A stretch of DNA of 61,899 bases from Reclinomonas americana ATCC 50394 (GCA_048213135.1 PS015047.1:36165-98063); one strand, 5' to 3'; positions 2,256 to 38,400 are shown, counted from the first letter of the stretch. Numbers and translations are program-made. Notes: generated by a model not told the origin, from the sequence alone.

Positions 2256-5200
2256 GAGGCGGCAAGTAAGAAACGAGTGCACGCGCGTGAACACACTCAG
2301 GGGCATCGACGCAACGCAATACTGCAGCAGAAACTGGCGACACACAATCGATGACACGAGTGAGTACGACGGATAACGATTGATAGAAATGAGGCTGGCT
2401 GGTCAATAATGATCTCACCGACACTGACAACAAGAAGCGCACAGTGTAAGCACAGTGAATACACACAAGACAAGACGAACTGTAACCAACCTTGAACTGG
2501 AGAAGGCGCGAGTAACGTCACAGAACACACAAATCGCAAGTGAGTGACAATGAATACGAGAGACTGGCAGCGAAACGCGTACCTCCCTGCATCACACACA
2601 ATAAGTCACAAGAAGCAAGAAGAACACCGATAATCAGTGCAGTTACTCACAAGAATGCAGTATCATGCTTGGGGCACGACAAGGCACCGCCAGCCACACA
2701 GCCTCCACACACCAGCTCGCTTGGATCAAAGTTGGCAGGATTCTCCGCGCCGCATATCCTCTCACCGCCAAAGTATGGTCGCTGAACGAGCACAATGAGC
2801 AATTCAGAGCAGCGGTGTCCAATCTCCTTCTCTTCCTCATTTGCTTACATATGACCAACATATAAGGAGACACTGTGCTGCACAGTTCACAAAATAATCT
2901 CCATATACAAGCTTGCACAAAGAGCTCAGAAGAGTGACTGTTCAAATCGCACAGTCTATACTGCACACAAAAGCTGACAAAAGAGCAATGGTTCGGCGTA
3001 TTGCTTCCAGCTCACACACTGTTGCTCGTCCAGTCTCTCATCCACAAAAGAAAGTGCGAGAAACAAGACGTGAATTAATTTCACCAACTCTTTCATCATC
3101 TCTCACCTCCCAGTCTTTCATGTCCGTTCTTTCTCTCTCTCTCTCTTTCGATCACTTGCCTGATCTCAAACACCTGTCTACTTGCACCTTTTCTCTTCTC
3201 ATAAACGACCTATGTGTCTATCACCTCATCCTTCCCCTTTCCCACCCTCCCCTCTTTCTCTTCCCCTTTTACCCTCGCTCACCTGACACCTATGGCACAA
3301 ATAAAAGTTGTACCGATGCAGACCATATCCAAGTGGATCACCAAAGAACTGACTGCCCTCGGTGGTGATCTCGGGGCACGATTCGAGCGCATCGAGTCGC
3401 AGCCGAGCAAGACACTTGTCCTGCGCGTTTTCAGCTGTTCAGCAAACTCGCTGCACAGAACTATTCTGTGCAAGAAGCAGAACGCACCTTGACATGCTCA
3501 AAGAGTTCACGCACGGGAGCCATGAGTGGCTCCAGCGACTTGTGCGACATGGTGGTCTTGCACAGCGGGCACTGCGAGAACGAGAAACTGATGCGGCTCC
3601 CTGCAAAGCCGAAGAGTGAGTACACGATCAAAGAACTCACCGCCACGCGATGCAGGTGACCAACCGCTCCATCTGGCCGTCAACATGCTCTCCACACACT
3701 CGGAGTGGAAAATGTGACCGCACTCCAGTCGAATGCAAGGCGCACAGCTCAGCGGTTCCGAGTAGCAAATCGGGCAGTAGTCCGAATCGTCCTGTACAAA
3801 CACACACACACACACACGCATCAGCACCATCTCTGTGTCTTCTCTCATCACAAACAGTCGCGCACCACCGCCGTCTGCGTGCATCCGTACAAGCACGGCA
3901 AGTGTTCCGTTTCGTTGCAAATGCCATGGCAGACGTGTCCGCAAGGGAGAAGCGCGCGACAGCTCTTCTGACAGCGCGACTCGCACGCAGGCTCCGTGCA
4001 CACATTGGAGAGTGCCGGCGACAATGGCTGTGTGCACAAAGTGATGAGACTGGCGGTAACACGAGAATACTGTGCCAACAAAGAGCACGAACCGCGGTAC
4101 ATCGGTTGGCGTCGGTGAGGGCAGACTCGCAAAAGCGGCACGTCTGCGGTCCGTCACCGCGATCGGCTGCGCGCACCTCAATCACCGCCTTGAAAGTTTG
4201 CGGGTCGACCAACGCCATGAGCTGCATGGCGCGGAGAGTGGTACACCGCAGGCGCACGCCGCCCGCTCGCCACTCGACCGACACGGCCGGCACTACTCGC
4301 CTCACAATTGTGTCCTTGAACTCATCCGATATGTCTGATGAGAGGTGGGAATGGTGAGTATTGTGACCAGACAAAGAGACAGACAGACGAGTGGATCGAC
4401 AATGACGCACTGCGGAAGCACACACAAGCGCAGGCCTTCCAGATGGCCAGCGTGCTCTCAATCACATCAATCGTTCCCGCGACATGCATCAACGACGAAA
4501 TGTGCTCGCCACACGCCTCCGCCAGCGCCTCGTCCCACAACTCGCTTTGCGCGGCGACCGCTCGCAACAGCGCACCGATCTGGGCGAGCGAGTCAGAGAT
4601 CCAAGATAGACACCAAGAGCTCATGAGCAATAATTTGCAAACCTCATCGGCGATTTCGGCAGTGACCACAGTGCGCATGCACAACGCGGCGCAGCTGCGT
4701 AACCTAGTCGACCGCGTGACACCCACTCGCTGATCTCGAATGTCGGTGGTCAGCGCACGGGCAAGCGACAGGAGAAGCAGGTCCACCACTTCGCGTGTGC
4801 CACTGGCGTGCGTTTGTTCCACGCCTAAAGTGGTGAACGGGTGATGAATACGCTTTCAATCATATACGCGAGAGCAAATGGCCTGCGTCTCTCTCAAAGC
4901 CACTCCGATGTTTCCACCCTTCCCCTCTTTTGCACTTGACAAGGAACTCGAGCGCAACTTGCTTCTGTCAGTCACCAACTCTCCCTCTTGCCTCCTTCTC
5001 ACCCTTTCCCTCACCTTACAACACCCAATCAGATGAGCGCGTTTTCTCAAAGCCTCTCCTTCTCTCTCACGCCATTCTCTCTTTCACTCCTTCTCTCCAA
5101 TGCTATCATTTGCACTTTCCAACTATACAAAAGCAACTGGTATTTGTATCTCGCCAAGCCTCCCTTCCCTCTCCCCATCTCTCTTCACTCTCCTACCAAA

Positions 5201-18200: not shown

Positions 18201-20438
18201 GCGTCGTCGTCGTTTCCTGTGGAGAGGAAGGGGGGACAAGGGAGAAGGAAAGGGAAGGAGAGTGAGAAGAGAGGGCGAATAAAGGACAATTGATATCTCG
18301 CTCCCCCACCAAACACACCGAAAAAGTCGAACCCAAGCATGTCCTGCACCATGTCGTCCTCGAAATACCTGCTCGAGTACGCCAGTCGGCTCTCCTCGTT
18401 CACCGGCACCCCATCGTGCGCGTCGATCCGCACCTCCAGCGCAAAACTCAGAGCGCTGACGCCACCGCTGTTGACGACGCGGTACGAGGTGTGCTGCGGC
18501 AGCGGCGATGCCAGTAGTGCAGACGATGTCGGCTGCAAGGTGAGAGGATCCACCTCCATCCAGCGATTCTCCCCGTCGGCGGCCGTCACAAAGAGGCGGC
18601 CGTTGGAGGCCAGCAATTCGGAGGCACTGCGCGGTAAGGAAGAAGGGGGAAATGGGCAAAGAGAAAAGAGAAGAAGTCTGTGTCAAACACGCAACTGTCC
18701 GGCGGCAAGGGTCGCCGACGTCTGCATCGTGCCACTGGTCGCATCCGTCACCGCACTCAGGACGCACACGAAATCACCGTCCTTGACGAAGAGGCGGTCA
18801 CCGAGGCAGGCCACGGAGAGGCGCGAGTCGGGGTGCCAGGCGTGCGGGACGGCAGCGGCGCGTTTGTCGACGGCCACCACCTCGGCGACAATGTGCGTTC
18901 GTGATGGTACACACAGGTGCCAGCTCGGGAGGGTGACGTTGCGGGCGATGCGATGCAGCAGGGCGGCTGGAACTGTGATTTGCACGTCGTCCTTGTAGGT
19001 CTCCAGCGCCACGAGTGTCTTCAGTAGTATGTGGACGTGACGGCGTGAGAAGGCGGAGTACACCTGCAGGGAGCGGAAGAGAAGTGAGGGGGAGAATGAG
19101 GGGAGGGTTGGGTGAGTGAGCGCACCATGGTCGACAGGAGGAGCGGGAGGTCGAGGTCGGCGGGTGGGCGGGCGGCGAGGGAGAAGAGGGCGGTGTCGAT
19201 GGCCACGAGGAGGTCCTGCGAGGAGGCAGAGTGAGTGGACAAGAGGGGAGGGAGAGGAAGGGAGGGGAAGGGAGGGGAGGGGAGATAGAGGAGCGGGTGG
19301 AGACTGAGTGGGGGCGACGGAAGTGGAGGGAGACGGAAGTGGGGGGAGACGGAAGTGGAGGGAGACGGAAGTGGGGGGAGACGGAAGTGGGGGGAGACGG
19401 AAGTGGGGGGAGACGGAAGTGGGGGGAGACGGAAGTGGGGGGAGACGGAAATGGGGGGAGACGGAAATGGAGACTGCACGAACCTCCGGAAACAACTGCA
19501 GCTCATGCGGGAGCGACGACTCCGATCGATCCTGCACCGACACGAACAGCGTGCGGATCGTGGCCAGTGCCTTGTTGATCACCGAGATGGGCGTGTCGGA
19601 GTGATTCAGGGCGAGGAGGTACATGGAGAGGCCGGAGCGTGCTACGGCGGGCAGTTCGACGACGGTTTGTAGGGCGTCGCGGGAGAGGGAGGTGGTTTCC
19701 TGGTGGAAGGGGGGGAGGGAGAGAGAGGGCGAAAGGGGAGAAGAGTGAGGGAGATGAGGGAGAAACGTGAGGCAAGGATGCATGCGAGCAGAGAGACGAA
19801 GCAGCTGTGCGGCGGGTGGGTAAGTGATTTGGAGTGAGGGAATGAATGAGAGAGTGAGACAAAAAAGAGGGGAAGGAAGAGAAGGATGAGAGAGAAGCGA
19901 GGGTGAGACTGAGGTAGTGTTGCTGACATGCTGCGCAGGGAACAGCATCAGTGGACATGAATAGTGAAAGAGTTCGGTGCGGAGAAAGAGAGTGAGCGAG
20001 AGAAGCACAGAGAGCGAGTGCATTCAGGAAGAGGAGAAAGTGAGTGAGGTGGGATGAACAGATTGCAGTGAGTGAGAGAAGTGGCGCGGAGTGAGTGCGG
20101 GAGCTGCGGATGAGCAGAGTGAACAAGTGAAACAGAAGAGTGAGATGAAGCGAGTGGTGAGTGGGCAGGTGAATGAGAGATAGACCTGGAGTGTGGGAGC
20201 GAGAAAGAGAAAGGGTACGCGAGTGAGTGAGAGAGAGAGAGGGAGTGAGTGAGAGAGAGAGAGAGGAGGGAGGGAGGGAGGAGAGGAGGAGGAGGAGGAG
20301 GAGGAGGAGGGAGGAGGAGGNNNNNNNNNNNNNNNNNNNNAAACACACCTCTCTCTCTCTCTGTGGGTGACTGTGAGAGCCCGACTTCGATGAGCGTGAA
20401 TTACGCAGGTTGTCTTTGCCCTCTCTCTCCTCCCTCAC

Positions 20439-20606: not shown

Positions 20607-20883
20607 GTTGAGTCTCTTTCTTGCAATTGCCACGCGGCTTGTTGCGGAAAAGGCACCTCGGGACATGTGGAAGTCAATGCGTTGTGTGTGAGAGTGACGA
20701 CTCTGGAGCGTTGGTGTGAATCGGCTTGTTCAGTGATGGTGGGAAAGATGTGTGCTATTTTTTCACTTTCCTTGAGTCGCTCCTGATTGCAGAGATGTGT
20801 GAAGTGCGCGACTGCGGGACACGTGTTCGGTCGGTGTGTTCCAAAACTCGTCACGTGTGTTGTGGAGCGCTGCGTGTGTGCAC
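20607..20883. promoter_or_regulatory. Putative bidirectional promoter between the E3 ligase (-) and lipase-TPR (+) start codons
   Basis: 277 bp between the inferred divergent ATGs at 20606 and 20884. The region is duplicated at 29484-30845. Confidence 0.5.
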
Positions 20884-21004
20884 ATGTTGCAGCGTCTGCT
20901 TTCTTGGGGCGGCAGAGTGCTGCTTGGTGTGGGTGGGCTGGTGAGGAGTTCTTGTGGTGATTTACTGCGCCATGGCTTGTTGTCTGATTTTGTTTGTGTG
21001 TGTG

Positions 21005-21056
<52 letters not shown>

Positions 21057-21555
21057 AGGCTGGCGCTGGTCTTGGGCATCGCGCTGACGCTGGCATTGAT
21101 CGTGAAAAGCCGCAAGGCCAGGTCGCACCACCTGCGAGAGTTCCACTCAATGCGCCAGCATTTATCTCTCGTGTGCCACCGATGCGGCCTGTTAGTAATC
21201 CGGCGAATGTTGCCGCGTCCGCGAAAGAGGCCATAGACCAACGCATCAACAGCATCCGCGAGAGCTTGATTACAGCTCTCACTGAGATGAAGAGCTACCG
21301 GGGTCAGTTGGCTGCTCTGGCCTATGCCGTAGATGAGTCCGAGAAACAGCCGGGCGGTATTGGTGTGGCGACACCGGAGGCACGCATTGCTGCTGCTCAA
21401 AAGATGCTCCGCTTGCTTGCCGAGGAGTGCTCATCAATCAGTGTCAAGAACCGCCTGCGCAGTCTGGAGGTGGTGGACGCGCAGGAGACCTATGTCATTG
21501 TGGTTGCGTGTCGCTCGTTCAAGTCGAATGTCACGTGTGCTGCTTCCTGTTCACC

Positions 21556-21587
<32 letters not shown>

Positions 21588-24500
21588 GTTGCTGTTGCTG
21601 CCATCTGCTACGCACGCGGTGTCATTATCTTGTGCCTGTGACGCATGCAGGTGGATCGTGAGCACCGTGAGATCAATTTGTGCATCGCGGGAACGCGATC
21701 CGATGTGGTGATGGTACCAACACCCTCGGCTCCAAAATTTACAGACTCGTGGACCGACGGAGAATGGATGGATCTGAACCATGAGCGTCGGGAGATGTTG
21801 GCTCCGAAGTCGACTGACTTGTGGACCGATGCGATGCTGGCCCTCGGATACGCGTACACCGCCGCTGTACCGTGGCAGTTTGAGGCCGCCAAGGAGGCGC
21901 TGAAGTATGCGCTTTGCGAGGTTGCACCGGCGTACCAAGCCAGTCACGGGCCAGACGCAGGATTCAACCCGTATCGCGTCAGTATTCACGGACACAGTCT
22001 CGGCTCAGCCATTGTGCGTTTTAGTTGTCTCTATTTCTTGTCGGGTCACGCTCATCTCAATCGTGTTCAGTGTGCCTGGTTGAAGCACGGCGATTTTGCA
22101 AAAAATGCCAAGCTTCCAGTGAATGCCTACTTATTTGCCACCATTCCAGTGCCAACGGGATGGGTGGACAATGCCGCTGACAAGGTCTGTTCCTCGTTGT
22201 CGGCTTCCAAGAATGCAAATGAGAAACTCAACAACGCCCAGAATCAGAAATTGAAAGCTGCTCAGCCGTCGAGTGCTGCCGGCATGACGGTGTTCCACAG
22301 CGGAGGTGCTGTTCATGCATACTCGAATTCAGGCGATATTGTGGTCCGAGGGGCGCAGTTGGTCGGTTCGCTTCACCGTGGCTTTCAGTTGCCCGACACC
22401 ATTGAACACGACTCTCCACCAAGCCAGCATGCTATCGTCCATTTCTACGATACTGCACGAGCGGGTACTTCGAATTGATTTAACTTCGCCGTCTGCATAC
22501 GCTCAATTCTAACTATCTGAGTGTGTTCAGCTCTTGGTGAGAATGATGCGTTGTTCATTAAGGACATAATTCGCATACTGCGTGGTACGCTGCAGCCAAG
22601 TGACGGTGAGTGTGTCGTCGCACGTGCGCGACCTGATGGTGTATTTCTTACACTGCTCGAGTCTGCAGATCAAGCTGTCTCTGTTCACAATGTGGAGAAG
22701 GCTCTCTCTGAAGTGTTTGAAAAAATCAACGCACGGCATGTGGATGTGCAACAAAGTGCGCGCTTGCAAGCAGCACTCAATGACTGCTTTCAGGGATTGT
22801 GGAATGGTAAGTGTGTGGTCGTAACACGCTGTTGCAGAACTGAAACTTATTTTTCCAACCATAGAGTTGCGAAAGCTCGTGACAGGAGAAGAAGAGCGGG
22901 GGTCCCTGGATGCGCTGGAATTCCTTGGACCGTTGGTTGACTTGGTGGTGGAAGGTACAATTACGCTCTCTGTGATGTGTGCAAGCTATTTCATTCGATC
23001 GATCAGATTCTTGGTTCTTTGTTCTAGGTAATGACGTTTCGCCGAATCAAACATTCCCTGTCGCGACACGGGCGATTATGCAACACTTAGAAGCAGTTGA
23101 AAGTGCGTTTAAGTTTGTTGCAGCACTTACATTGACTCCTTTTGTGCTGAAGTCATCAGCAGGAGGTAGTATTCCTCGATCTGTGCTACTTGTGTGCATT
23201 GGAGTTCAACAATTTTGTGGTGATCGGATGCCTGTTGCGTATATCACTCTCTCGTAGGTCGGCCATGCATTTTCTCACTGTTCATGTACATGCCACCATA
23301 TACATCTACATCTACAGAGGAGCACAGCAGCAGCTGAAAAGGCATTTGGCATTCTGCAATTAATGGTCAACTGGGAGCAGATGCCAACCGCAGGTGCACA
23401 CTGCTGTGGTGGTGATCACGACGGTGGGCCGTGCGCATCATCATTAGTACCTGAAGTCTGTCAATCTGCGACTGAAATGTCTTAACGTGCTGTAGGGACT
23501 GCTGGCGGCAAATTGTTGATCGCAAGGGAGAAAACTGCGAAATTGCTACGCTATCTAGGAAATTATGCCAATGCGGAAGTGATGCAGCGACACGTGTTGG
23601 CCGAGAATGAGCAACAACTTGGGGTCGACCATCCAGATACCATCACAAGTCGCAGCGGATTGGCCTCTACACTCCAATCGGCTGGCAACTTTTCCCAAGC
23701 CGAGGACATTGGACGACGAGTGGTGATCGACCGCGAGCGGGTTCTTGGAGTCGATCATCCTCATACTATTGGCAGTCGCCACAGCTTGGCGGTGACACTC
23801 CAGTCGCTTGGCAAGTACGAGGAGGCGGAGAAGATTGGACGGCGTGTGGTGGCCGATTATGAGCGGATTCTCGGAGTCGACCATCCAGACACCATTGCCA
23901 GTCGCAATGACCTGGCTTCGTCGCTCCAGTCACTTGGCAAGCATGCCGAGGCTGAGGCAATCGGACGATGTGCTGTGGCCGACTGTGAGCGGATTCTTGG
24001 AGTAGACCATCCAGACACAGTTGCCGTGCGCGATGATTTTGCTTCGGTGCTTCTTTCAGTTGGCAAGTACGCCGAGGCTGAGGAGCTTCAGCGGCGTGTG
24101 GTGGCCGATCGTGAGGTAATTCTTGGAGTTGACCATCCAGATACCATCGCCAGTTTTCGTGTCCTGGCGTCGACACTCCAGTCACTTGGCAAGTATGTTG
24201 AGGCTGAGGACATAGGACGACGTGCTGTGTACAACTGCGAGCGAATTCTGGGAGTCAACCATCCACACACCATCAACGGCCGCCTCGCATTGGCATTGAT
24301 ATTCCAGTCGCTCGGCAAATATGTCGAAGCCGAGGAGTGTGGACGGCGTGTAGTGACCGACTGTGAGCGATGCCTTGGTGTCGACCATCCGCGCACGATC
24401 AATTGTCGCCAACACTTGGCGTCAACACTTCGATCGCGTGGCAAGTATGCCGAAGCCGAGCTGATTGAGCGGCGTGTCATGGCCGACTGTGAGAGGATTC

Positions 24501-26497
24501 TCGGAATTCACCATCCTGACACCATCACCGGACGACTTAGTTTGGCATCTACACTCCAGTCGCTTGGCAAGTTTGCGGAGGCCGAGAAGATCCAGCGGCG
24601 TGCGGTGACCGACCGCGAGCGGATTCTTGGAGTGGATCATCCCAGCACCATCGTCAGTCGGCACAACTTGGCGTCCACACTCTGCTCACTTGGAAAGTAT
24701 GCCGAGGCCGAGGAGATGCAGCGGCGTGTGGTGGCTGACCGTGAGCGGATTCTTGGAGTCGACCATCCGCACACCATCACCAGTCGCCACAGCCTTGTAT
24801 CGACACTTCGATCACTTGGCAAATTTGCAGAGGCTGAAGAAACGGGACGACGTGCTGTGTTCGACAGTGAGCGGATTCTTGGAGTTGACCATCCGGACAC
24901 CGTCGCAAGTCGTCAACTCTTGGCGTCAATCCTCCAACTGCGCGGCAGGTACACTGAGGCCGAGGTGGTACAGCGGCGTGTGGTGGCCGACTTTGAGAGG
25001 ATTCTCGGAGTCTTCCATCCCGACACCGTCTCAAGTCGTCGACACTTGGCCGAGGCACTCAAGTTACTTGGCAAGTATACTGAGACCGAGGCGATTCTGC
25101 GGCATACGGTGGCTGATTTCCAGCGGATTTTTGAAGTCGATCATCCGCACATCATAACCAGTCAACAAGACTTGGCTTCGATTCTTGAGGCGCATGGCAA
25201 GTATGCCGAGGCCGAGGTGATTCGGCGACGTGTGGTAGCCGACCGCGAGCGGATTCTCGGAGTCGACCATCCAGACACAGTCGCCAGTCGCGAAAACTTG
25301 GCTGCAACACTGTATTTCCTCGGCAAATATGCTGTTGCCGAGAAGATTCAGCGGCGTGTGGTGGCCGACCGGGAGCGGCTTCTTGGAGTCGACCATCCGG
25401 ACGCCATCTCCAGTCGTTGCGACCTTGCAATGATGCTCAATTCGCTAGGCAAGTTTGCTGAGGCCGAGGAGATACAGCAGCGTGTGGTGGCCGAATTTGA
25501 GCGAATAGTTGGAGCCGACCATCCAAACACCATCACCGGACGCCACTGCTTAGCATCGATATTTAGGTCTCGTAGCAAGTACGCGGAGGCCAAAGAGATT
25601 GATCGGCGTGTGGTGGTGGACCGAGAGCGGATTCTTGGAGTCGACCATCCCGACACCATCAATAGTCGCCTCGCCTTGGCGTCGACACTCTGGTCGCTTG
25701 GCAAGCATGCCGAGGCCGAGGAGATTCAGCGACGAGCAGTGGCCGATTATGAGCGGATATTTGGAGTGGACCATCTGCGCACTGTCGACTGTCGCCACGG
25801 CTTGGCATTGACTCTCCGGTCTCTTGGCAAGCATGCCGAGGCCGAGGAGATTGATCGGCGTGTGGTGGTGGACCGAGAGCGGATTCTTGGAGTCGACCAT
25901 CCCGACACCATCGACAGTCGCCTCGCCTTGGCGTTGACACTCTTGTCGATTGGGAAGCATGCCGAGGCCGAGGAGATTCAGCGACGAGCATTGGCCGATT
26001 ATGAGCGGATATTTGGAGTGGACCATCTGCGCACTGCCGACTGTCGCCACGGCTTGGCGTTGACTCTCCGGTCTCTTGGCAAGCATGCCGTGGCCGAGAA
26101 GATTCAGCGACGTGTAGTGGCCGACAATGAGCGGATTCTTGGAGTCGGCCACCAACGTACTATCACCAGTCGCAACAACTTGGCAGCTATATTGCATTCA
26201 TTTGGCAAATATGCCGAAGCTGAGGAGATTCAGCGACGTGTGGTAGTCGACTATGAGCACGTTATTGGAGGCGACCATCCAGACACTCATACGAGTCGCC
26301 GTTTATTGGTGGCAATACTGCGGTCTCTTCGCAAGTACGCTGAAGCTTACGAGATTGAGCAGCGTACACGTGGCCATGAAGGTTGGATTCTTCAACTTGA
26401 CTATCCTGCCACCAACAATATCACTGGCACCAGTCGCCACAGCGTACCGTCGACACTGCAGCCGGGTGATATTCCTATATTCCGCCTCGGGTTGTAA
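20884..26497 (+). CDS. Class-3 lipase (alpha/beta hydrolase) domain + helical linker + 22 x 42-aa TPR repeats (kinesin-light-chain/fungal-NLR type)
   Basis: Exon 1 is 20884-20940 (MLQRLLSWGGRVLLGVGGL), exon 2 is 21059-21502, exon 3 is 21651-22013 (INLCIAGT..., VSIHGHSLGSAI with GxSxG at 21990-22004) and exon 4 is 22071-~22464 (YLFATIP, NSGDIVV, QHAIVHF). Short linker exons span 22531-~23394, followed by a 3.0-kb terminal exon 23496-26497 of LGVDHPDT..LA..L..LGKY.EAE repeats. The lipase-to-TPR linkage is inferred; one linker splice (~23100-23320) could not be resolved. Confidence 0.75.
23618..26389 (+). repeat. 126-bp coding tandem repeat array (22 TPR units), including a recent 252-bp duplication (25595-25846 / 25847-26098)
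   Basis: The LGVDHPxT period of 42 aa was counted 22 times. Units 17-18 and 19-20 are nearly identical at the DNA level. Confidence 0.93.
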
Positions 26498-26559: not shown

Positions 26560-29480
26560 ACTGATCATATCAAGAAGAACAGTGGGGCATTGGGAAACTG
26601 TTACTTCTTGGTTCTCACCGCCACCATGTCAGCAGCTTGCACTCCGGCCTGACCCGGTTGTGCACGTGGTGTACAGACTACAACCCATACCCATACAGCG
26701 TTGGACAAACATCGAGTAACTTGTACGAAAGCTTGCACAACCCATACCCATACAGCGTTGGACAAACATCGAGTAACGTGTACGAAAGCTTGTCGTGCAA
26801 AGGCGAGAGATGCACTGTCGGACGTTGCGCACTCCGATACAACGCAGGCCAGTCGACACCAACGTTGGAGCCGTACCAATCGAGGTCACAGGGAGCACCA
26901 CCAGCTCGACCTTGGCCTGATCGCCGACCTTCTGCTTGATGGCCTTGACCAACGAACGACTCGTACTTGGCCTTCTTGCCGTTGACAGCAGACTTGACCG
27001 AGTCTTCCTTGGCGAAGGGGCACGTCAACTCCACCACCTGGACCAAGCCGATCTCACCAGTCCCCTCTCTGGTATGAACCAGGTGAGGTCCGGCTTGAGC
27101 CTGGCCAAGTTGGCGTGGTTGGCAATGTCCACCGGCACTGGCAGCAAGTCGGCGTCGACACGCTCGCGCACCAGCTGGCACGCCACACCGTCCACCTTGG
27201 GGCGCCGCACCAGAGCCGCATGAAGGACGTCAAGCACGTTGTCGTGGCGCGTCGTCCACAAGCCCTTCAGCTTTTCACAGCCGTTGATCATGAGCAAGTG
27301 ACCGAGCGACTCCGACTCCTTTCCACAGAGCGGGCACAGCGATCGCGAGGCAGGGCCACCAGCGTTGCCGATGAAGACCGCCGCCTTGTTGTTGAGCATG
27401 ACAGACTTGGTCCNNNNNNNNNNNNNNNNNNNNNNNNNNNNNNNNNNNNNNNNNNNNNNNNNNNNNNNNNNNNNNNNNNNNNNNNNNNNNNNNNNNNNNN
27501 NNNNNNNNNNNNNNNNNNNNNNNNNNNNNNNNNNNNNNNNNNNNNNNNNNNNNNNNNNNNNNNNNTGACACCCAACTTCAGAGCGTGCCCGAGAGCAACA
27601 CCCATCAGATTGGAGCGAACAGCGCGGCGAGGAGCATTCGGATCAGTGGCCACTTGAAACCGAGTACCTGCACCAGGAGCAACCGCAGCAGCACCAGCCT
27701 GAGGAGCAACAGGAGACAAACACACAGAGAAATACCGCTGTGGCGTGGCAACTGGCAGCTGCTGGCGATTAACGTCTGTGACCTCGTTCGTCTGCCGGTA
27801 CTTGGCCACCTAACCAGCAGTCGGCAACGGCGAGAAGTCGTCAACACGACCACCGGCCGCCTTCACCGAGCAGTGGAGCATGCAGGCTCCGCCACACGGC
27901 GAGTCAGCGGTCGGCGGTGTGTCAACAGCTTCACCGCCGAGTTGATCAACAGAGAGGCCGCTCGCTCCACCACAGAGCACAGGCCGAGACCACCTATCGA
28001 CAGCGGAGTGTAGAGGAAGGGTGTGCCGGAGTCGTTGCCGAGGCCAAGGCAGAGTCGGATGTTGTCGCGGATCTTGCGGTCGAATCTGCCGAGCGCGTCC
28101 GGCTGAAGCTCCACTGCCGAAATGACAAAGGTGGCCTTGGTGAGGACGAAGCGGCGAACGGCATCCACATTCCGGAGCGGCAACAACGACGACTGCTTGA
28201 TGGCGTGAAGAGCTGCTTCTCCAGCATCTCCGCCACTTGCTTCTTCGCCTCACTTGTACGAGTCGGTGAGTAGAACGGGTAGCCAAGCCAACGATCGCAC
28301 TCAGTGATAGATGACATGGATCGCAACGCAGTGCCAGCCATCAGCAGCTCGGGATCGAACTCCTCCGCCACAAAGTTCTGCGCCTGCAATGGACCAGTCG
28401 GCTTGTTCCGAGCACGCAGAGCCAACACCAATGACTTCTGCGGGTTGTCGGCAATGCCAGCTGCAGACCACTCGGCCAAAACGCTTGGACAGATCCAGGA
28501 CCAGCTGCGCCTCACGAACAGAAGACACCACCACTTNNNNNNNNNNNNNNNNNNNNNNNNNNNNNNNNNNNNNNNNNNNNNNNNNNNNNGTTTTGTGTTT
28601 TCAGCCACCATGTCAACCCAGCCCATTACCTCAGTGTCGCCCTTGCGGTCGGCAAAGTACTGGAAGACCTCGTACGGCACGCCATCCAAGCCAGTCGCCA
28701 CCGCCTTGTGGAGCGACTTCAGCAGTTTCTGAGCATTCGACACAGTGACCATTGGGGTGTTGCAGAGTGGAGACTCTTGGGCGGCCAAGGTGTGTTGAAC
28801 GTCAGGCATGCGGAAGTCGGCCTCGCTGTCGATGCCGAGATCTTGAAGGTCGGGCCAGTCAGTCGGTGGGTTGTCGACCGCGGCCGTAAGTTGCTGGTAG
28901 AAAGACACAGAGTCGTCGGCCGAGCCAGAGAAGCGGATGTTGGCGCACTTGCCACGCTCGGCCTCGAACTCGTTGTTGACACGCTGGAAAGCCTTGTTGG
29001 CATTGACACGGTAAAGGTGCTGCAGGCGGCTGGAGTTGAGGGCAGCGCGAGTTGCATCAGCCTTCTTCTTTGCCGCACTGTGAAGACACAAGGCCTTGTT
29101 GAGCGCAACAAGCAGACGACTACGAATAGTACTGTAGCTGCCACTCCAGACAGCGCCGGTCGAGGGGACCAACGTCTTGGGAGGCGGTCGACAGCAGCTT
29201 GCCAGTCTTTCGACACGGAAGCACGCAGAGAGCCGGAGCGGAGGCCAGAGGCGACAGCAGGGGGCGCCACCTTGTCAGCCGGCTTAGCCGCTGGCGACTC
29301 GTGGTGGTGCTTCTGGAACAAGCGGAGGAGGGAGCGAACGATGACCAGGTGTTGCTGGGTGGTGCACTCTTCGCGGATGCGACGAGGACGAGAGCCGCCG
29401 GCAGCGCCAGGCTCCTGCTGACGACGGGCAGCCGACTCCGCAGCAGCAGCACACGCTGCAGGGGCCATCAAGCGACCGAT
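26560..29480 (-). mobile_element. Degenerate non-LTR retrotransposon of the RLE (R2/NeSL/HERO-like) type, frameshifted and probably 5'-truncated
   Basis: Minus-strand fragments: LQHLYRVNANKAFQRV and ATGLDGVPY (RT N-terminal extension/domain 0); VVVSSVREAQLVLD, NPQKS and RWLGY (RT C-terminal part); LYTPLSIGGLGL (thumb); CPLCGKESESLGHLLMINGC zinc knuckle; TRHDNVL; LKPDL..VELTCPF..KKAKY restriction-like endonuclease. The RT core lies in or across N gaps, several frame switches are needed, and the ends are approximate. Confidence 0.88.
26680..26792. repeat. 57-bp tandem duplication at the 3' end of the retroelement ORF
   Basis: ACAACCCATACCCATACAGCGTTGGACAAACATCGAGTAAC(T/G)TGTACGAAAGCTTG occurs at 26680 and again at 26737. 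Confidence 0.95.
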
Positions 29481-29483
29481 ATA

Positions 29484-30845
29484 TGTTGAAGACCGCACGC
29501 CCTGCGCGTGAGACTCTCGTATTCTTTGATCACGCTGTCGAGGTCCCAACCCTCGAGAAGCGTGGTCATGCTGTGTCTCTTTCTTGCAAGCGACACGCGG
29601 CTTGTTGCGAAATACATAGGGAGACAAATGTATCCGAAAGCCCGACCGTTACTCCATTTTTCTCCGCAACAACATCAGCAAGCCCAATTTTTTTTTGCGC
29701 GAAACATGATCTCCGGGGCTGTTCGGACAGGTCTGTCAACTCCGTTTCCCGCACAAAAATCGCATCAGTGTGACAGATTCATTTCTTGCGTGACATGTCG
29801 CGAAAAATCTGTGAACACCTTCCCAGAAAAATAACCGCCGTCGTTCCTGACCACTGGCGCACACAGAACTACTCAGCAGCAACCCGCCGACACACTGTGA
29901 CCCTCGACACAGCCTCCACACATGTCAAACGATCTGTCACTGTGTGTCATTGACATCATCTCGATGTGATTGATTGCCAGAAAATTGATAGTGATGGATG
30001 ACCGCACACTCCTCGGCGCCACCGACGACCGCTTTGTTGCCACTGCAGCGGGGATGGTTGCCCTGTGTCCCCACGTCATGAGGATATGTGTTTCACAAAG
30101 AGGCGACGAGTGATGTGGTCGGTGAGAGTGCGCGACACTGACGTTGCTGAAATCATGGTCGTCTGTGTGACTGCGACCGTGGATGACCGCCAAATCATCG
30201 TCTTTGACTGGCCACGTATCAGAAGTGATCTCAGTACCACTAGGAACCGTTGGGCTCACGTGCACACTCCAGAGATCAAACGATCACCCTCTCGATGCAA
30301 ACAAATCGCAGGCACACGATTTTTGGGACACTTTTTTTTCGTAAAATCTGGTTTTTTTTCTCTGCAAATCCGATCCGGAAGAGACTCGAGCCTCTTTGGC
30401 TGAAGGAAGTACCTGGCAAACGCTCTGCAATGACGTGCTCGCTGGGTCTGGCAAGTTAACGGGAAAGGAGTTCTCGAATTTCTTGATTTTCGGATACATA
30501 TGTCTCCCTATGTATGCACCTTGGGACACGTGGAAGTCAATGCGTTGTGAGTGAGAGACGACTCTGGAGCGTTGGTGTGAATCGGCTTATGCTGTGTTGG
30601 TGGGAATGGTATGTGCTATCTTTTCTCTCTCTCCTTGAGTTGCTCACCGTCCAGTGAAGAGTGTGAAGTGCGCGTCTGCGGGACAAGTACGTGTTCGATC
30701 GCGACACGTGCACTGAGGGGCCCTCGACACTCGATTTATTTCTCTCTGTGAGCGCTGAGTGTGTGCACACACATGCTGCAGCGTCTGCGTACTTGGGGCG
30801 GCAGAGCCCTGCTCGTTGTGGGTGGACTGGTGGACCGTGGTGAGC
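29484..30845 (+). repeat. Diverged direct duplicate of ~20525-20945 (inferred E3 exon 1, shared promoter, lipase-TPR exon 1), interrupted by a MITE
   Basis: 29510-29570 is identical to 20547-20607 (61 nt). After the insert, GCACCTTGGGACACGTGGAAGTCAATGCG... aligns to 20653 onward, and ATGCTGCAGCGTCTG at 30773 matches ATGTTGCAGCGTCTG at 20884. Confidence 0.92.
29615..30512. mobile_element. 898-bp non-autonomous TIR DNA transposon (MITE-like; the TA target duplication suggests the Tc1/mariner superfamily)
   Basis: 25-bp TIRs CATAGGGAGACAAATGTATCCGAAA (29615-29639) and TTTCGGATACATATGTCTCCCTATG (30488-30512) with 1 mismatch; TA at 29613-29614 and 30513-30514. The insert is absent from the paralogous site at ~20650, and no transposase ORF is visible. 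Confidence 0.9.
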
Positions 30846-31055
30846 TCTCGTGCACGCGAACCTGTCGTGTATTCCACTGTTTCATTTTCCGATTTATTGT
30901 CATTCACCACATTAATATTTCGATAATGCGAACAAATGTACAACCGTTGACAGTTGCATGATCTTGTTCGTCATGCTCGACAAGTCTGGCCGGCGTGACG
31001 AGGCCGAGGAGATGTAACAGCGCGCAATGACCGATCTTGGCGTGTCAGCACGTTG
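30773..31055 (+). pseudogene. Remnant of a paralog of the lipase-TPR gene
   Basis: Exon-1 copy MLQRLRTWGGRALLVVGGLV, then a TPR-like fragment MLDKSGRRDEAEEM*QRAMTDLG with in-frame stops at ~30973-31055. Confidence 0.6.
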
Positions 31056-31340
31056 AGATGACGATTTGCATGCCTTCTCCAGTTTCTGGTGCTCACTCAA
31101 GATGGTGATTATCATGCAGCTGTGTTGCTGTTTGGATTAGCAAAGTTGTTGTTGTTGTTGTTGAACCCCATCTACGGAAACCGAAAAAGCGCAACGTCCG
31201 TTTTCCGTTTTTTCCCTCAAAAATTACCATTCCTCCCTCAAATTTCTTTTCCACACACGCAACGCGCCAGCACCACACCCACCCACAGCACGGCACTCCC
31301 TGGCGGCCGCTTGCTCCCCACCCCACACCCCACACACCCC

Positions 31341-32134: not shown

Positions 32135-33594
32135 TTATTCCGGCAGCGCCTGCTGCAGAAGCGACCACTGCGACAAGCAAGAAGATATCAGTAAAGTGGA
32201 CGTGACTGAATTGCAAGACACACAGAGACGCACCAATGCATCGCCAAATTGCTTCTCGCCCCACGCAAGACTGCGACTGCGTGCCTCGCGCGCAACTCTT
32301 TGTCGCTCCTCGGCGTCCTCCAGTGCACGCTGTGTGGCGGCCACGGCATCGTCGACCGAACGCATGTCGGCATGAAACGCAGCGCCGGCGCCCAGCAAAT
32401 CCACGGCTCCAATCTGCCCGCCGCTGTCGCAAATGGTGGGCACGCCAAACGCCGCGCTCTCCACAATCGTCAGGCCCCACGGCTCGTACGTGGTGGGGTG
32501 GAAGTTGAGGCACGTCTGGCGATAGAGGGTGGCCAGCGCATCGGGCGTCACGTGCCCGAGTATCGTGCACTCGTCGTCGCCGGGAAAGGCCGCACGCAGG
32601 CACTCGATCACTCGTCGCCCGTAGTCGGCGTCGGAGACGGAGCCGACAAGGACCGGTCGAATGCCCCGTTGGCGCAAGAACGGCGCCATGGCGGCACACA
32701 CTTCGGCAAACACCAGCGTGTTCTTCTCCGGACTCAGCCGACAGCAACACAACAAGAACTGTTGCGGCTCCTCCTGCGGCCGCTCCTCCTGCGGCTTCAC
32801 TGCCAGCTCCTGAATGTGCGACGCCAGCGGCGGTCCCAACACATGCACCGGCACCGCACACACTCTGTCGCCCTCCTCGTCTCCAGCTTTCCCGCGACTC
32901 GCCAAGTGCGCCTCCAGTCCGCGCCGCACCGCTCGCGCATCCACACTCGACAGGCACACCACGCAGTGCGACAACTCGCACGCCTCCCACAGCCGCTCCA
33001 CGTAAAACGCCGCATCGTCGGGCGAGTTGGAGGGGTTGGCCGAGTACTCGCGAAACGGGAAGAACACGAAACGCACCGTCGACGGCAGCGACGAGCGGAG
33101 CGCCGAGAAGGCCGGTGCCGATGTCCAGTCCACGCCAATGACGAGGGAGGGCGAAAAGTCGGCGAGGCGTTGGGAGTGGGTGGTGGGGAGGGACTGGGAA
33201 AGGGAAAGGCATTAGGAAGGGAGAATGCAGAGGGATAAGCATTGCTCAACATCATCTTTCTCTCTTTGTATCCACCACCTCCGGCAAGCCATCATTAACT
33301 TCCACGCAGACTCCCTATCCAACCGCCTCCACACCGACACCGCCACACTCCACACTCTCACCACCACCTCTCCACGCTCATCCAGCACCTCCATTCGCCC
33401 ATCACCACCACCACANNNNNNNNNNNNNNNNNNNNACCACCACAGTCATCCTTGTCTCCACTTCTCGCACAGACCACCGTCACCTCATTGCCCGCACGCG
33501 TCACCAGTGAATGCACCATCGATCGCCCATACGTTCCATTGCCGGAAAACAGCGGCGCGATAAACTCCAACGTGAGAAACACAATGCGCGTCAT
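32135..33594 (-). CDS. GT-B fold glycosyltransferase, family 4 (Glycos_transf_1-like)
   Basis: N-terminal MTRIVFLTLEFIAPLFSGNGTYGRSMVHSL; CRLSPEKN; NFHPTTYEPWGLTIVESAAFGVPTI (ExxG-x-E motif). Multi-exon. Confidence 0.85.
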
Positions 33595-35427: not shown

Positions 35428-38400
35428 GATTGTGAGACAACTAAGAGCGGGGAAAGAGCGAGAAGACGGGGAGAAGGGAGACGAAAGGGATGCGGAATAA
35501 GTGTGCGTGGTAGCATGCAGGGAGAAAGAAGACACGACACAAAAGAGTGGGNNNNNNNNNNNNNNNNNNNNTCTTTCCCCTTCTTCTCCCGTTACTCCCT
35601 TCCCCTCCCTTCCCCTTTCACCCTCCCTTCTCCATAATTCCCCTTCCCCTTATACCCTTTTCCTTAATACCCATTCTCCCTAATCCCCCTTCCCCTTAAT
35701 CCCCCCAGGCATGTTAGGCGCCCTCGCCCAATACACCTTCACCTTCCCCAACCGCACCTCCATCCTATTACCCTACTACGACGGCCCGTTCGGCACGCTG
35801 GACGAGATGACCAAATCAGTCTCCTCGACACAGGAGCGCTTCAACGGCCTCACCATCAAGAGCATCCGCAACACGCCCGACCTGCGCTACCTGCTGCCGG
35901 ACTCCATTGTCGAGTTCGGGCAGGTGGACTTTGCGAACGGCGTGCTCTCGGTGCCGCACCTCATGGCCATGGATAACTCGAATTACGAGCGCACGCCGTC
36001 GCTCATCAGCATCCAGCGTACAGTGGCGCAAGTGACGACTGGCTTTGGTGCGTAAGAGGGGAGGAGGAGGAGGAGGACGATGAGAAAGGAGAGGGGCCTA
36101 GTTCTTATTCTCTCTCTCGCGCGTGCAGCCATGCAGACGTCGCAGCAACTCTTCCCGGCCACCATGTCGCAGGCGTTTGACTTTGCCGACTATTTGAAGA
36201 CCGTGAAGCTGCTCGACGCCGTCGGCATTGGCCTATTCCCCCTCGCCCTCTCCTTCCTGCTGCCCATGTACATGACGGCCATTGTGCTGGAGAAGCAGGA
36301 GAGACTGCGCGAGATGATGATGATGGTGAGTGGTGGTTCAAGGAGAGACTCTGTGCTCTTGTTCTGATATATCTGTTGCCCTCTTTGGCACTTGACCGGA
36401 GCGTATCCTCGTGCTTTCTCTCTCGTGTGTTCTCTGTGCTTCATGGACTCTGCTTCCCTCTGTTTTTTTGTCCTCCACACGGTTGTGTGTATTGCTCCTT
36501 GCATCAACGCACTTTGCTGTCTTCCTCTCTTGTCGCTGCTCTGATCACCAGCGCACGCACACTGCACTGTGTGTGGGCAAGTCTGAAATTGTTGTCCTAC
36601 TCGGAGAACGAATTGCAGCTGCATTCGCTCTCTTCACCGTCTATCCCTCTCTGTCTCTCGCATTCTTGAGCTGCTTGTTTCGAGTGCGCTCGAATATCGT
36701 CTCTTGAATTCATATCTCGTCACCGTCAGTGCTGCTCATATCCTCCACTTCATCGTTCGTCGTGAACACTTCCTCAGTCGGAAATGCATGCTGACGGTGT
36801 CTTCTCTTCAACGCCCGTTGATCCTTTCTTTCATCGCACGCGAATGTGGACTCGCTTCTTGCTGTGTCCCACACTCACGACCTGATACTCAAATTCCCGT
36901 CCCTTCTCCTCCCTGCACGCTGATGGTGGTTTCTCACAACATCTGTGGATCTTTTCTTCCGTCGCACACGATTGTGGGCTCACGCTGTACACTTTCACAC
37001 TTTAATTTGTCTCTCACTTTTCCCTCCTCCCCTCCCTGCGCGCTGGTGATGTCTTCTATCCAACATCTGTGGATCCTCGCTTGCATCATCGCACTCTGCT
37101 CCATTATCCTTCCCTTTTCCCCTTAGCCCCTTCCCCTTTCCCCTTCCCCCTCACCCCCTCACCCCTTTCCCTATGTGCAGATGGGCATGCACCCCATCAC
37201 CTACTGGGCCACTACCTACCTCTTCAACTTCATCCTCTACACCGCCGTCTGCGCACTCTTCTTCGGCGTGGAGATCGGCCTCGGCGTCACCATCCTCACC
37301 AAAACCGACTGGCGCGTCTCGTTCTGGCTCTTCTTCCTGTGGGGCCACACGCAAATCGCGCTGTCGTTCCTGCTGAGCACGTTCCTGCGCCGCGTGCGCA
37401 CGGCCACGGTGCTCGGCTACGGCCTGGTGCTGCTCAGCATGTTCGCCTCCAACATCTTGAACACGCAAGTGATCCAGCTCGACCGCGCCCCCTTCATCTA
37501 CTACCTGTACCCGCCGATGGGCTTCTTCCGCGGCCTCTACTTTATGTTCTCCGCCTGCACCGGCATTGTGTCGGCCAAGGCCACGGTGGCCACGGCGCGC
37601 TGCATGTCGTGGTCCGACGTGACCGGCGGCCACGAGATGCAGGAGGTGTACGGTGTGATGGCCGCCGAGACCGTGCTGATGCTGCTGCTCACGTTCTACT
37701 TGGATCGCGTGTTGCCGACAGTTGCGCGACACGATATCGAGAGAGTGTGGTGTGCATAGTCTTGCTTTTGCTGACTCTCTCTGCCAGTCGTGCGGCGGCG
37801 CCGGTGTCCGTGTGTGCCAGCCGATTATCGAGTGCGGTCGGTGCACGTTCTGCGGCAAGCTGAACAAGGACGACGAGGCGTGCAGCTGCTGTCGGCGGAG
37901 TGGACAGGCGGGTGCCGAGGAGGATGATCAGGAGGTGAGGCGGGCGGACAAGGATAGAAGGGAGAAGGGATGGCAAGATTGGGCAAGTAACACCCTTCCC
38001 CCCTCCGCAGTCGCTGATGCCGTCACGTCAACACACGTACGGCTCGGTGAACGCACCGTCCGATGTCGAAGGTGACGCGTTTATTATGGCAACAGTTTTT
38101 CCTCCACTCGCCCTGACTCTTTCTCGTGCAGGTGCTGCCGGCGTGCCAGTAGTACACGTGGACCACTTGGTCAAGGTGTTTGGCAACAAGCGTGCCGTCG
38201 ACGACGTTACATTCTCTGTGCAGGTGAGCGCATGCTGCTTCGAGAGAGAATGAGAGATGGTGCGTTCTCACTCCGCCTTGCAGCGCGGAACGTGTCTCGG
38301 ATATCTCGGCCAGAATGGCTGTGGGTCAGTGCCTGTTCCCTTTATCACGATCATCGTTGTCTTTGCACTCACTTCCCCTTTTGCCCCATGCAGCAAGAGC

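Follow-up and report, generated by a model that had tools for sequence, protein, structure and literature searches.

A lipase-like domain and a long tetratricopeptide repeat array in one predicted gene of Reclinomonas americana

EDS1, PAD4 and SAG101, which act in plant immune signalling, combine a class-3-lipase-like N-terminal domain with an all-helical C-terminal domain. In fungal NOD-like receptors (NLRs), according to the cited sections of Dyrka et al. (2014, PMC4986451), NB-ARC is preferentially paired with tetratricopeptide repeats (TPRs), and the high internal conservation of such repeats is defined by an identity above 85% across 100 amino acids (aa) or more. Here, we compare these systems with a locus of Reclinomonas americana ATCC 50394 at positions 20884-26497 (plus strand) of a DNA stretch of 61,899 nucleotides (nt; GCA_048213135.1 PS015047.1:36165-98063), which is called the window throughout. 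The initial annotation of this DNA had read the locus as a lipase-TPR fusion resembling an NLR immune receptor, with no nucleoside triphosphatase (NTPase) domain in sight. On balance, we lean towards a lineage-specific eukaryotic gene of nine exons that encodes a divergent class-3-lipase-type hydrolase, a linker and 22-23 TPRs of the kinesin-light-chain (KLC) type.

Repeat array, exons and coding frame

The open reading frame (ORF) 23486-26497 (+) is uninterrupted over 1003 codons and encodes a KLC-type TPR array. The Pfam models for 42-aa helix-turn-helix units match it with very high scores: TPR_10 with an E value of 5.7e-233 (747.9 bits, 22 stretches), TPR_12 with 5e-184 (597.4 bits, 21 stretches), and TPR_NPHP3 with 278 bits in 12 stretches. 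The LG-x-x-HP anchors recur exactly 42 residues apart, 21 times running, and Tandem Repeats Finder reports a period of 126 with 21.3 copies and 69% matches. The open frame, the exact register and the Pfam score thus agree with the description of a single intronless 3-kb exon of 22 TPRs in the initial annotation. The array comprises the following elements, and the profile built from the 22 units had no match upstream of unit 1:

23552-26323, plus strand: 22 TPR units of 42 aa (Pfam TPR_10 and register)
26324-26461, plus strand: degenerate 23rd unit (profile of the 22 units, E 1e-6)
25568-26071, plus strand: two-unit block duplicated recently in tandem, present as units 17-18 (25568-25819) and units 19-20 (25820-26071)

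Compared pairwise, the 22 units are on average 59.6% identical at the amino acid level (231 unit pairs) and 68.8% at the nucleotide level. The repeats had been called highly similar, which applies only to the blocks of units 17-18 and 19-20. This sole close pair of blocks differs at 16 of 252 nt and 10 of 84 aa, with a ratio of nonsynonymous to synonymous substitution rates (dN/dS) of 0.55. The high internal conservation that the initial annotation had cited for the TPR arrays of fungal NLRs was not found here: the identity of 0.60 compares with more than 85% in the definition given above (cited sections of PMC4986451), and the best block, with 74 of 84 aa identical, is shorter than 100 aa. 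Across 229 unit pairs, dN/dS has a median of 0.33; the units are under purifying selection overall, and the array has grown by tandem unit duplication under this selection.

Upstream of the array, a splice-compatible frame connects the exon listed last below with eight further exons. The resulting model has eight introns, all GT-AG and 58-162 nt long, and a coding sequence of 4851 nt (1616 aa) with no internal stops; the six introns downstream of the lipase exon share phase 1. None of the 13 N runs in the window lies inside 20884-26497. The window was judged to be eukaryotic from its short GT-AG introns, its (TG)n microsatellites and its scaffold gaps (the N runs). The exons are:

20884-20940, plus strand: putative exon 1, ATG, 19 codons, donor GTGAGG; putative start codon
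21059-21529, plus strand: putative exon 2, 157 aa, without known family
21651-22464, plus strand: exon 3, lipase-like domain, within ORF 21642-22478; IAGT, GHSLG, NSGDIV and QHAIVHFY motifs
22531-22605, plus strand: linker exon 4, phase 1-1, from the splice model
22669-22806, plus strand: linker exon 5, phase 1-1
22865-22954, plus strand: linker exon 6, phase 1-1
23028-23165, plus strand: linker exon 7, phase 1-1, first in-frame Met past the lipase exon
23328-23393, plus strand: linker exon 8, phase 1-1, least certain junction, alternative acceptors checked by hand
23496-26497, plus strand: exon 9, single 3-kb exon with the TPR array and the stop codon

Because chains of GT-AG introns can arise by chance, the pieces were tested by codon frame. 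The codon table was derived from two training sequences, the TPR exon and an unrelated ORF in which Pfam supports a glycosyltransferase domain, and 250 ORFs were scored. The codon-frame advantage of a segment, i.e., the margin by which its own frame outscores the two shifted ones, was compared with 5000 random windows of the same length. Each segment scores best in the proposed frame when the codon table is derived from the unrelated ORF alone. The strongest frame signal of the gene was observed for exons 4-6 jointly, with an advantage of 0.487 that was reached by 0.1% of the random windows. These exons are free of in-frame Met codons; they come after the stop codon at which the lipase ORF would end if unspliced, and before the first in-frame Met. 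Since their coding-frame signal is strong and they have no Met of their own, exons 4-6 require an exon upstream of them. Only 10 codons of the TPR ORF precede the acceptor, and the first Met of this ORF is located within unit 1. Judged by the splice chain and the codon-frame signal of the linker exons, the locus is probably a single gene with a single transcript.

The remaining exons add several details. The peptide of exon 1 is hydrophobic, Gly/Arg-rich and free of acidic residues, as had been noted initially for the N-terminus. Exon 2 is predicted to be mostly helical, with a beta-strand-like stretch at its end, directly before the lipase exon. It has no match in Pfam or NCBIfam, and the best PHROG match has an E value of 0.013; its codon-frame advantage of 0.317 was reached by 0.86% of the random windows, and its ORF ranks 21st of the 250. 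The intron before exon 5 is 63 nt long, in frame and free of stops, so that its retention would add 21 aa. Exon 8 is preceded by a 162-nt intron, and the frame is also kept if this exon is skipped. Introns 1 and 2 (20941-21058 and 21530-21650) each hold a (TG)n/(GT)n microsatellite, at 20991-21055 and 21556-21589, respectively, the length of which may differ among isolates.

Part of the gene occurs a second time in the window:

30600-31083, plus strand: decayed paralog fragment, about 0.5 kb long, in which the copied 5' flank and exon 1 precede a broken TPR unit; no lipase part

The sequence 30600-30832 is 72% identical to the 5' flank and exon 1 over 236 nt, with a core of 84% over 83 nt (blastn E 1e-19), and 30943-31083 is the remnant of a single TPR unit with in-frame stops (nhmmer with the unit profile, E 5.4e-6). 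Because exon 1 is duplicated together with about 145 nt of its 5' flank, we regard it as the 5' end of the unit. The similarity runs slightly into intron 1, and therefore the fragment is a genomic duplicate with later deletions; an origin as a retrocopy was rejected for the same reason. Thus, a local duplication has taken place, 4 kb downstream of the gene, as the initial annotation had implied, although what remains of the decayed paralog is this short fragment. No further TPR or lipase copies were found in the window by tblastn at E <= 0.01, and the fragment itself was detected by DNA-level searches only.

The lipase-like domain and the linker

All four lipase motifs that had been reported for this locus lie in frame 0 of ORF 21642-22478: IAGT at 21684-21695, GHSLG at 21990-22004, the candidate Asp codon (in NSGDIV) at 22335-22337 and the candidate His codon (in QHAIVHFY) at 22428-22430. 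The length of this ORF (278 aa) is uninformative by itself, because the window contains 251 stop-to-stop ORFs of at least 110 aa (72 of at least 220 aa), almost none of them with a Pfam family. The pattern GHSxG occurs three times in 57,035 ORF residues, and the other two occurrences lie within poor ORFs. The codon-frame advantage of the lipase exon was reached by 0.06% of the 5000 random windows, and its ORF ranks 8th of the 250, with two training sequences among the seven that rank higher.

As a family reference, 29 bona fide Lipase_3 domains were gathered from cyanobacterial genomes (70 of 401 genomes had a Lipase_3 match). In a MAFFT alignment with these domains, the GHSLG of the exon falls on the columns in which the family has its invariant GHSLG, and the Tyr of the YTFG motif as well as the His and Tyr of H-x4-Y also fall into invariant or nearly invariant columns. 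Insertions are present after the oxyanion-region motif and before the Asp. Because of a low-complexity insertion of about 30 aa around the Asp, MAFFT misplaces this region. In a feature search of the ESM Atlas, 27 of the 30 nearest clusters belonged to the Lipase_3 set (best value 0.94, 176 of 256 features shared), and the next clusters lacking PF01764 were Abhydrolase_6, Phospholipase-like and Mbeg1-like, all below 0.9. When the sequence was shuffled with GHSLG held fixed, four further family motifs ([RA]G[TS], Y-x2-[GA]-x2-3-P, N-x2-D-x-V and H-x4-5-Y) appeared jointly, ordered and spaced as in the family, in 1 of 200,000 shuffles, a figure that overstates the case because the patterns were written after the sequence had been seen. 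The Asp and His motif pair alone appeared in order in 0.28% of the shuffles. Judged by motifs and language-model neighbours, the domain is quite likely a divergent hydrolase of the class-3-lipase type with candidate Ser, Asp and His residues, which stays below the curated threshold for family membership. The original assignment to the class-3 lipases thus survives as far as the motifs and their order are concerned, but not at the level of the Pfam score (13.9 bits, under the cut-off of 22) or of the hhalign comparison, which covers the elbow only.

Between the two domains lies a Leu/Ala-rich linker of 188 aa (residues 448-635 of the model). It had been described as a helical stretch of about 250 aa without a P-loop; apart from the length, this description holds. 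Neither G-x4-GK[ST] nor the looser [AG]-x4-GK[STQ] form of the Walker A motif is present in the spliced model or in any plus-strand frame of 20700-23600, in line with the initial reading, and the translated pieces have no NTPase match in Pfam. The linker contains no match to the profile of the 22 TPR units and shows no similarity to what lies outside the repeats in the 120 best TPR relatives (best E 0.36). It might still hide a cryptic nucleotide-binding fold.

These results bear on membership in the NLR or STAND class. Of its parts, the C-terminal superstructure-forming repeat is present, with 22 TPR_10 units and a degenerate one, and the N-terminal effector has a candidate in the lipase-like domain, which lies under the curated Pfam threshold. 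A central nucleotide-binding oligomerization domain (NOD; NACHT or NB-ARC) with a Walker A motif was not found, and membership was therefore rejected. Since it is the defining NOD feature that fails, 'NLR-like' describes an analogy and no membership; what stands of the initial proposal is the order of enzyme, linker and TPRs.

Possible function and competing explanations

If the favoured explanation of a single lipase-linker-TPR gene is correct, the TPR solenoid would bind one or more protein partners, and this binding would place or regulate the lipase-like domain; the most variable repeat positions, given below, are spaced as on a single helix face. The protein would then be a (phospho)lipase or esterase that is directed by its partner and lacks an ATP-driven switch. 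The partner might be foreign, as for an immune sensor, or cellular, as in a scaffolded lipid remodelling.

With the array as query, 4433 proteins were retrieved at E <= 1e-20, of which the best 120 (27-48% identical) were analyzed. By our reading of precomputed Pfam lists, the partner domains among these best 120 are CHAT (30), NB-ARC (27), cNMP-binding (14) and TIR_2 (8). Of the 120, 72 contain a Walker A motif, but among the 30 CHAT-bearing proteins a single one does, and thus enzyme-TPR fusions that are free of a P-loop do exist.

That the foreign partner is the right one is a tentative proposal, which by analogy we consider possible rather than likely. The TPR array would recognize a non-self protein and free the lipase, which would damage a membrane, making the protein an ATPase-free analogue of lipase-NOD-TPR receptors. 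An N-terminal enzyme and C-terminal TPRs is the order also found in fungal NLRs with sesB-like or patatin domains (cited sections of PMC4986451), and conflict-type partners (CHAT, NB-ARC and TIR_2) dominate among the best 120 relatives. The array is long, with 22 units compared with a median of 11, a 90th percentile of 16 and a maximum of 24 in these relatives, and it is still duplicating units. The decayed paralog 4 kb downstream and the orphan effector domain would fit fast birth-and-death evolution. However, a NOD module is missing, and the internal identity of the array of 0.60, besides being under the >85% of the cited definition, is ordinary, ranking 39th of 121 among the array and its 120 best relatives (median of the relatives 0.54). 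The dN/dS values of 0.33-0.55 give no sign of diversifying selection at the level of whole units. The most variable unit positions are 36, 35, 42, 32, 19 and 10, and the positions 32, 35, 36, 39 and 42 are spaced i, i+3/4, i+7 and i+10, as for a single helix face. In the cited sections of PMC4986451 the polymorphic sites of fungal NLR TPRs lie on the concave side, but a variable surface or helix face is to be expected in any TPR array. The immune-receptor reading is a reasonable analogy, and we would not put it higher than that; the non-self sensing, the gating of the lipase by the TPRs, the membrane damage and the organelle targeting considered in the initial annotation are conjectures that go further than the results.

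Several further results weigh against the favoured explanation of one gene with a lipase-type enzyme, and they can be sorted by the alternative that they point to. Concerning the gene structure, the locus might comprise two genes, a small lipase-like gene that ends with the TGA at 22476-22478 and a TPR gene whose start codon would be a Met codon of exon 7 or exon 8, which we regard as unlikely. If the intron after exon 3 is retained, this in-frame TGA is met 12 nt past the proposed donor at 22464, so that a lipase-only product is possible, and both exons 7 and 8 contain in-frame Met codons, of which that in exon 7 could start a TPR-only product. The coding signal of exons 7-8 is weak (advantage 0.175, reached by 11.5% of the random windows), and short GT-AG chains are easily found by chance. 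In addition, no fused homologue was retrieved in any search made: Lipase_3 (PF01764) is present in 0 of the 120 best TPR relatives, and a TPR unit in 0 of 6 long cyanobacterial ORFs with a Lipase_3 match (753 to 2659 aa), which instead carry RTX, DUF11 or laminin-G domains. Against two genes stand the Met-free exons 4-6, which have their strong frame signal between the lipase stop and the first Met and are phase-compatible with the lipase exon, as well as the uniform phase 1 of the six introns from that exon onward.

Three of the cyanobacterial ORFs, from loci at which the genome search had located a short stretch of Lipase_3 type, are giant and contain RTX calcium-binding repeats, namely L061:2336-7486 (-), L064:8406-16382 (+) and L066:2897-5155 (+). 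DUF11 is present in L061, and Lipase_3 was confirmed by Pfam in L061 and L066, not in L064 (E <= 1e-5). They look like secreted multi-domain lipases.

Concerning the enzyme, the 'lipase' could be a chance ORF with a GHSLG or a degenerate, non-catalytic binding module, as PAD4 and SAG101 are beside EDS1; this, too, seems improbable to us. The Pfam match to Lipase_3 (PF01764) has an E value of 0.053 and covers only the profile positions 62-87, being centred on the nucleophile elbow, and 13.9 bits are below the gathering cut-off. Hhalign against the profile of the 29 Lipase_3 domains aligned 18 columns at the GHSLG elbow only, with a probability of 20.5%. Database searches with the lipase exon were negative throughout: phmmer retrieved 0 relatives at E <= 0.001 among 1.84 billion representatives, the PDB sequences contained no relevant match (best E 1.4), NCBIfam and PADLOC gave 0 matches and PHROGs none better than E 0.13. 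Tblastn against phage records yielded six records, all with E 0.4 or worse and none annotated as lipase; a word-based search found 0 longer forms, and an exact-sequence look-up had no match in the searched collection.

The structure models of the domain are poor as well. AlphaFold2 on the single sequence reached a predicted local distance difference test (pLDDT) score of 35.9. With a lipase alignment the score was 53.8, for a model that is weak and circular, as it was built on that alignment; it shows a strand-elbow-helix arrangement in residues 1-130 (pLDDT 60-86), and its C-terminal half with the Asp and the His is below 50. Foldseek found no match in the PDB at E <= 0.001. The best VIA-align Z score for this low-confidence model, 5.4, is in a range common for unrelated folds, and the tied rows include fungal lipases, a feruloyl esterase, other alpha/beta hydrolases and EDS1 complexes. 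The low-complexity insert around the Asp and the high number of long ORFs in the window would also agree with a domain that is no enzyme. Against this stand the codon-frame rank of the lipase ORF and the rarity of its advantage among random windows, the language-model neighbours, which are consistently Lipase_3, and the candidate Ser, Asp and His, all of which are present in family order. A non-catalytic lipase-like domain usually loses at least one of these three residues.

The most far-reaching proposal is that of a minimal ATPase-free protist receptor, the 22-unit TPR solenoid of which would detect a foreign protein and thereby directly set free an orphan class-3-lipase-like effector. Such a receptor would parallel the STAND/NLR proteins independently and evolve by unit duplication and by a gene birth-and-death that the broken paralog 4 kb downstream suggests. 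This proposal is doubtful, and we give it little credence.

Returning to the favoured single gene, the combination of an orphan lipase-like head with a TPR_10 array and without an NTPase is new, and the general kind, an enzyme with sensor repeats, is known. A full-text literature search found no paper that describes Lipase_3 and TPRs together in an architecture lacking an NTPase. If the fusion exists and is active, a lipid-cleaving enzyme can be coupled directly to a long TPR sensor array, with no need for the nucleotide switch that defines NLRs, a coupling that we found otherwise only with a protease (CHAT). This would widen the catalogue of eukaryotic effector-repeat architectures and offer a simple system for the control of an enzyme by a repeat solenoid. 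If, instead, the locus is a single-copy housekeeping scaffold or consists of two genes, the finding is ordinary. Because the lipase-like domain is an orphan among 1.84 billion representatives and profile methods fail, it is also a test case for evidence from language models and motifs.

Neighbourhood and comparison with known systems

Two transposons had been reported to adjoin the gene. From 49 ORFs of at least 60 aa in 26.5-31.1 kb, 28 were picked and scanned, and 0 of the 28 had a transposon-type Pfam match at E <= 0.1, so that the claim was not upheld. The ORFs at about 27025-29274 (-), which have no Pfam match at E <= 0.1, contain what we take to be the start of a non-LTR reverse transcriptase and a C-terminal zinc knuckle; they are broken by N runs at 27414-27565 and 28537-28589. 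A direct repeat of 57 bp (26680-26792, 2.0 copies, 98% matches) starts about 180 nt past the stop codon of the gene.

Elsewhere in the window, a 358-aa open frame at 32138-33211 (-) has a Glycos_transf_1 domain (Pfam E 5.2e-16) and a 'GT4-conflict' match just under the threshold (25.9 bits versus a cut-off of 26); a word-based search with it yielded no homologue at E <= 1e-5. Rfam, consulted for clues to the lineage, had no match either. A RING finger ORF is located at 3510-4181 (-) (zf-RING_2, E 2.5e-6), and 37127-37756 (+) has a weak ABC2_membrane_3 match (E 2e-4, 21 bits, under the cut-off of 31.6). At about 19020-19580, a long minus-strand ORF encodes proline-rich peptide repeats in tandem, each about 16 aa long, which are mirrored by a Gly/Glu/Arg-rich sequence in the plus-strand translation; this is more probably a minisatellite than a gene. 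The 769-aa open frame at 46345-48651 (+), without a Pfam family, ranks 15th of the 250 in codon-frame advantage and may be another gene of unknown family.

How does the proposed gene compare with described systems? Its nearest analogues are the lipase-NOD-TPR receptors of fungi and the TPR-CHAT proteins that lack a P-loop. With the fungal NLRs (sesB-like or patatin, NACHT or NB-ARC, TPR; Dyrka et al., 2014) it shares a putative N-terminal domain of the lipase/esterase type and C-terminal 42-aa TPRs of the KLC type, the arrays of which, according to the cited sections of PMC4986451, reach about 21 units and vary through the duplication of units. NB-ARC-TPR proteins of fungi are also among the best TPR matches (37-44% identity). 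In contrast to the fungal receptors, the protein has no NOD module and no Walker A motif, and only 188 aa separate its two domains. The identity of its repeats is 60% and not >85% (cited sections of PMC4986451), and its hydrolase is nearer to the class-3 lipases than to sesB/SERAC1 or patatin.

The best-scoring relatives of the array are bacterial TPR-CHAT proteins (E values to 2e-187, 34-45% identity; JGI and ENA records with the name 'CHAT domain-containing protein/tetratricopeptide (TPR) repeat protein'), in which a TPR_10/TPR_12 array is likewise fused directly to a hydrolase without a P-loop. There, however, the enzyme is a caspase-like protease, and the genes are prokaryotic and intron-less. 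In the 12 of 30 TPR-CHAT proteins that were viewed, the array starts close to the N-terminus, and several hundred residues separate its end from the C-terminus; in these 12, the non-TPR part therefore follows the array, the reverse of the order in R. americana.

EDS1, PAD4 and SAG101 resemble the proposed protein in their general plan, and EDS1 complexes are among the weak VIA-align rows (7xey Z 4.8, 4nfu Z 4.4, 8zf0 Z 4.2, for a low-confidence model and in a common Z range). Unlike the proposed protein, they have a helical EP domain that is no TPR array, and no sequence similarity to EDS1, PAD4 or SAG101 was found among the PDB sequences or by phmmer among the 1.84 billion representatives. 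The class-3 lipases (PF01764), such as the Rhizomucor miehei lipase and plant PLA1, have GHSLG, Y-x-x-[GA]-x-x-P, N-x-x-D-x-V and H-x4-5-Y in the same order as the lipase-like domain, which differs from them by its sub-threshold Pfam score, its insertions and its fusion to TPRs, a fusion absent from the sampled Lipase_3 ORFs. Lastly, kinesin light chain and nephrocystin-3 contain the same type of repeat (TPR_12, TPR_NPHP3), in TPR domains of far fewer units than 22-23, and where these proteins have an N-terminal coiled coil or, in NPHP3, a P-loop NTPase, the head of the proposed protein is lipase-like.

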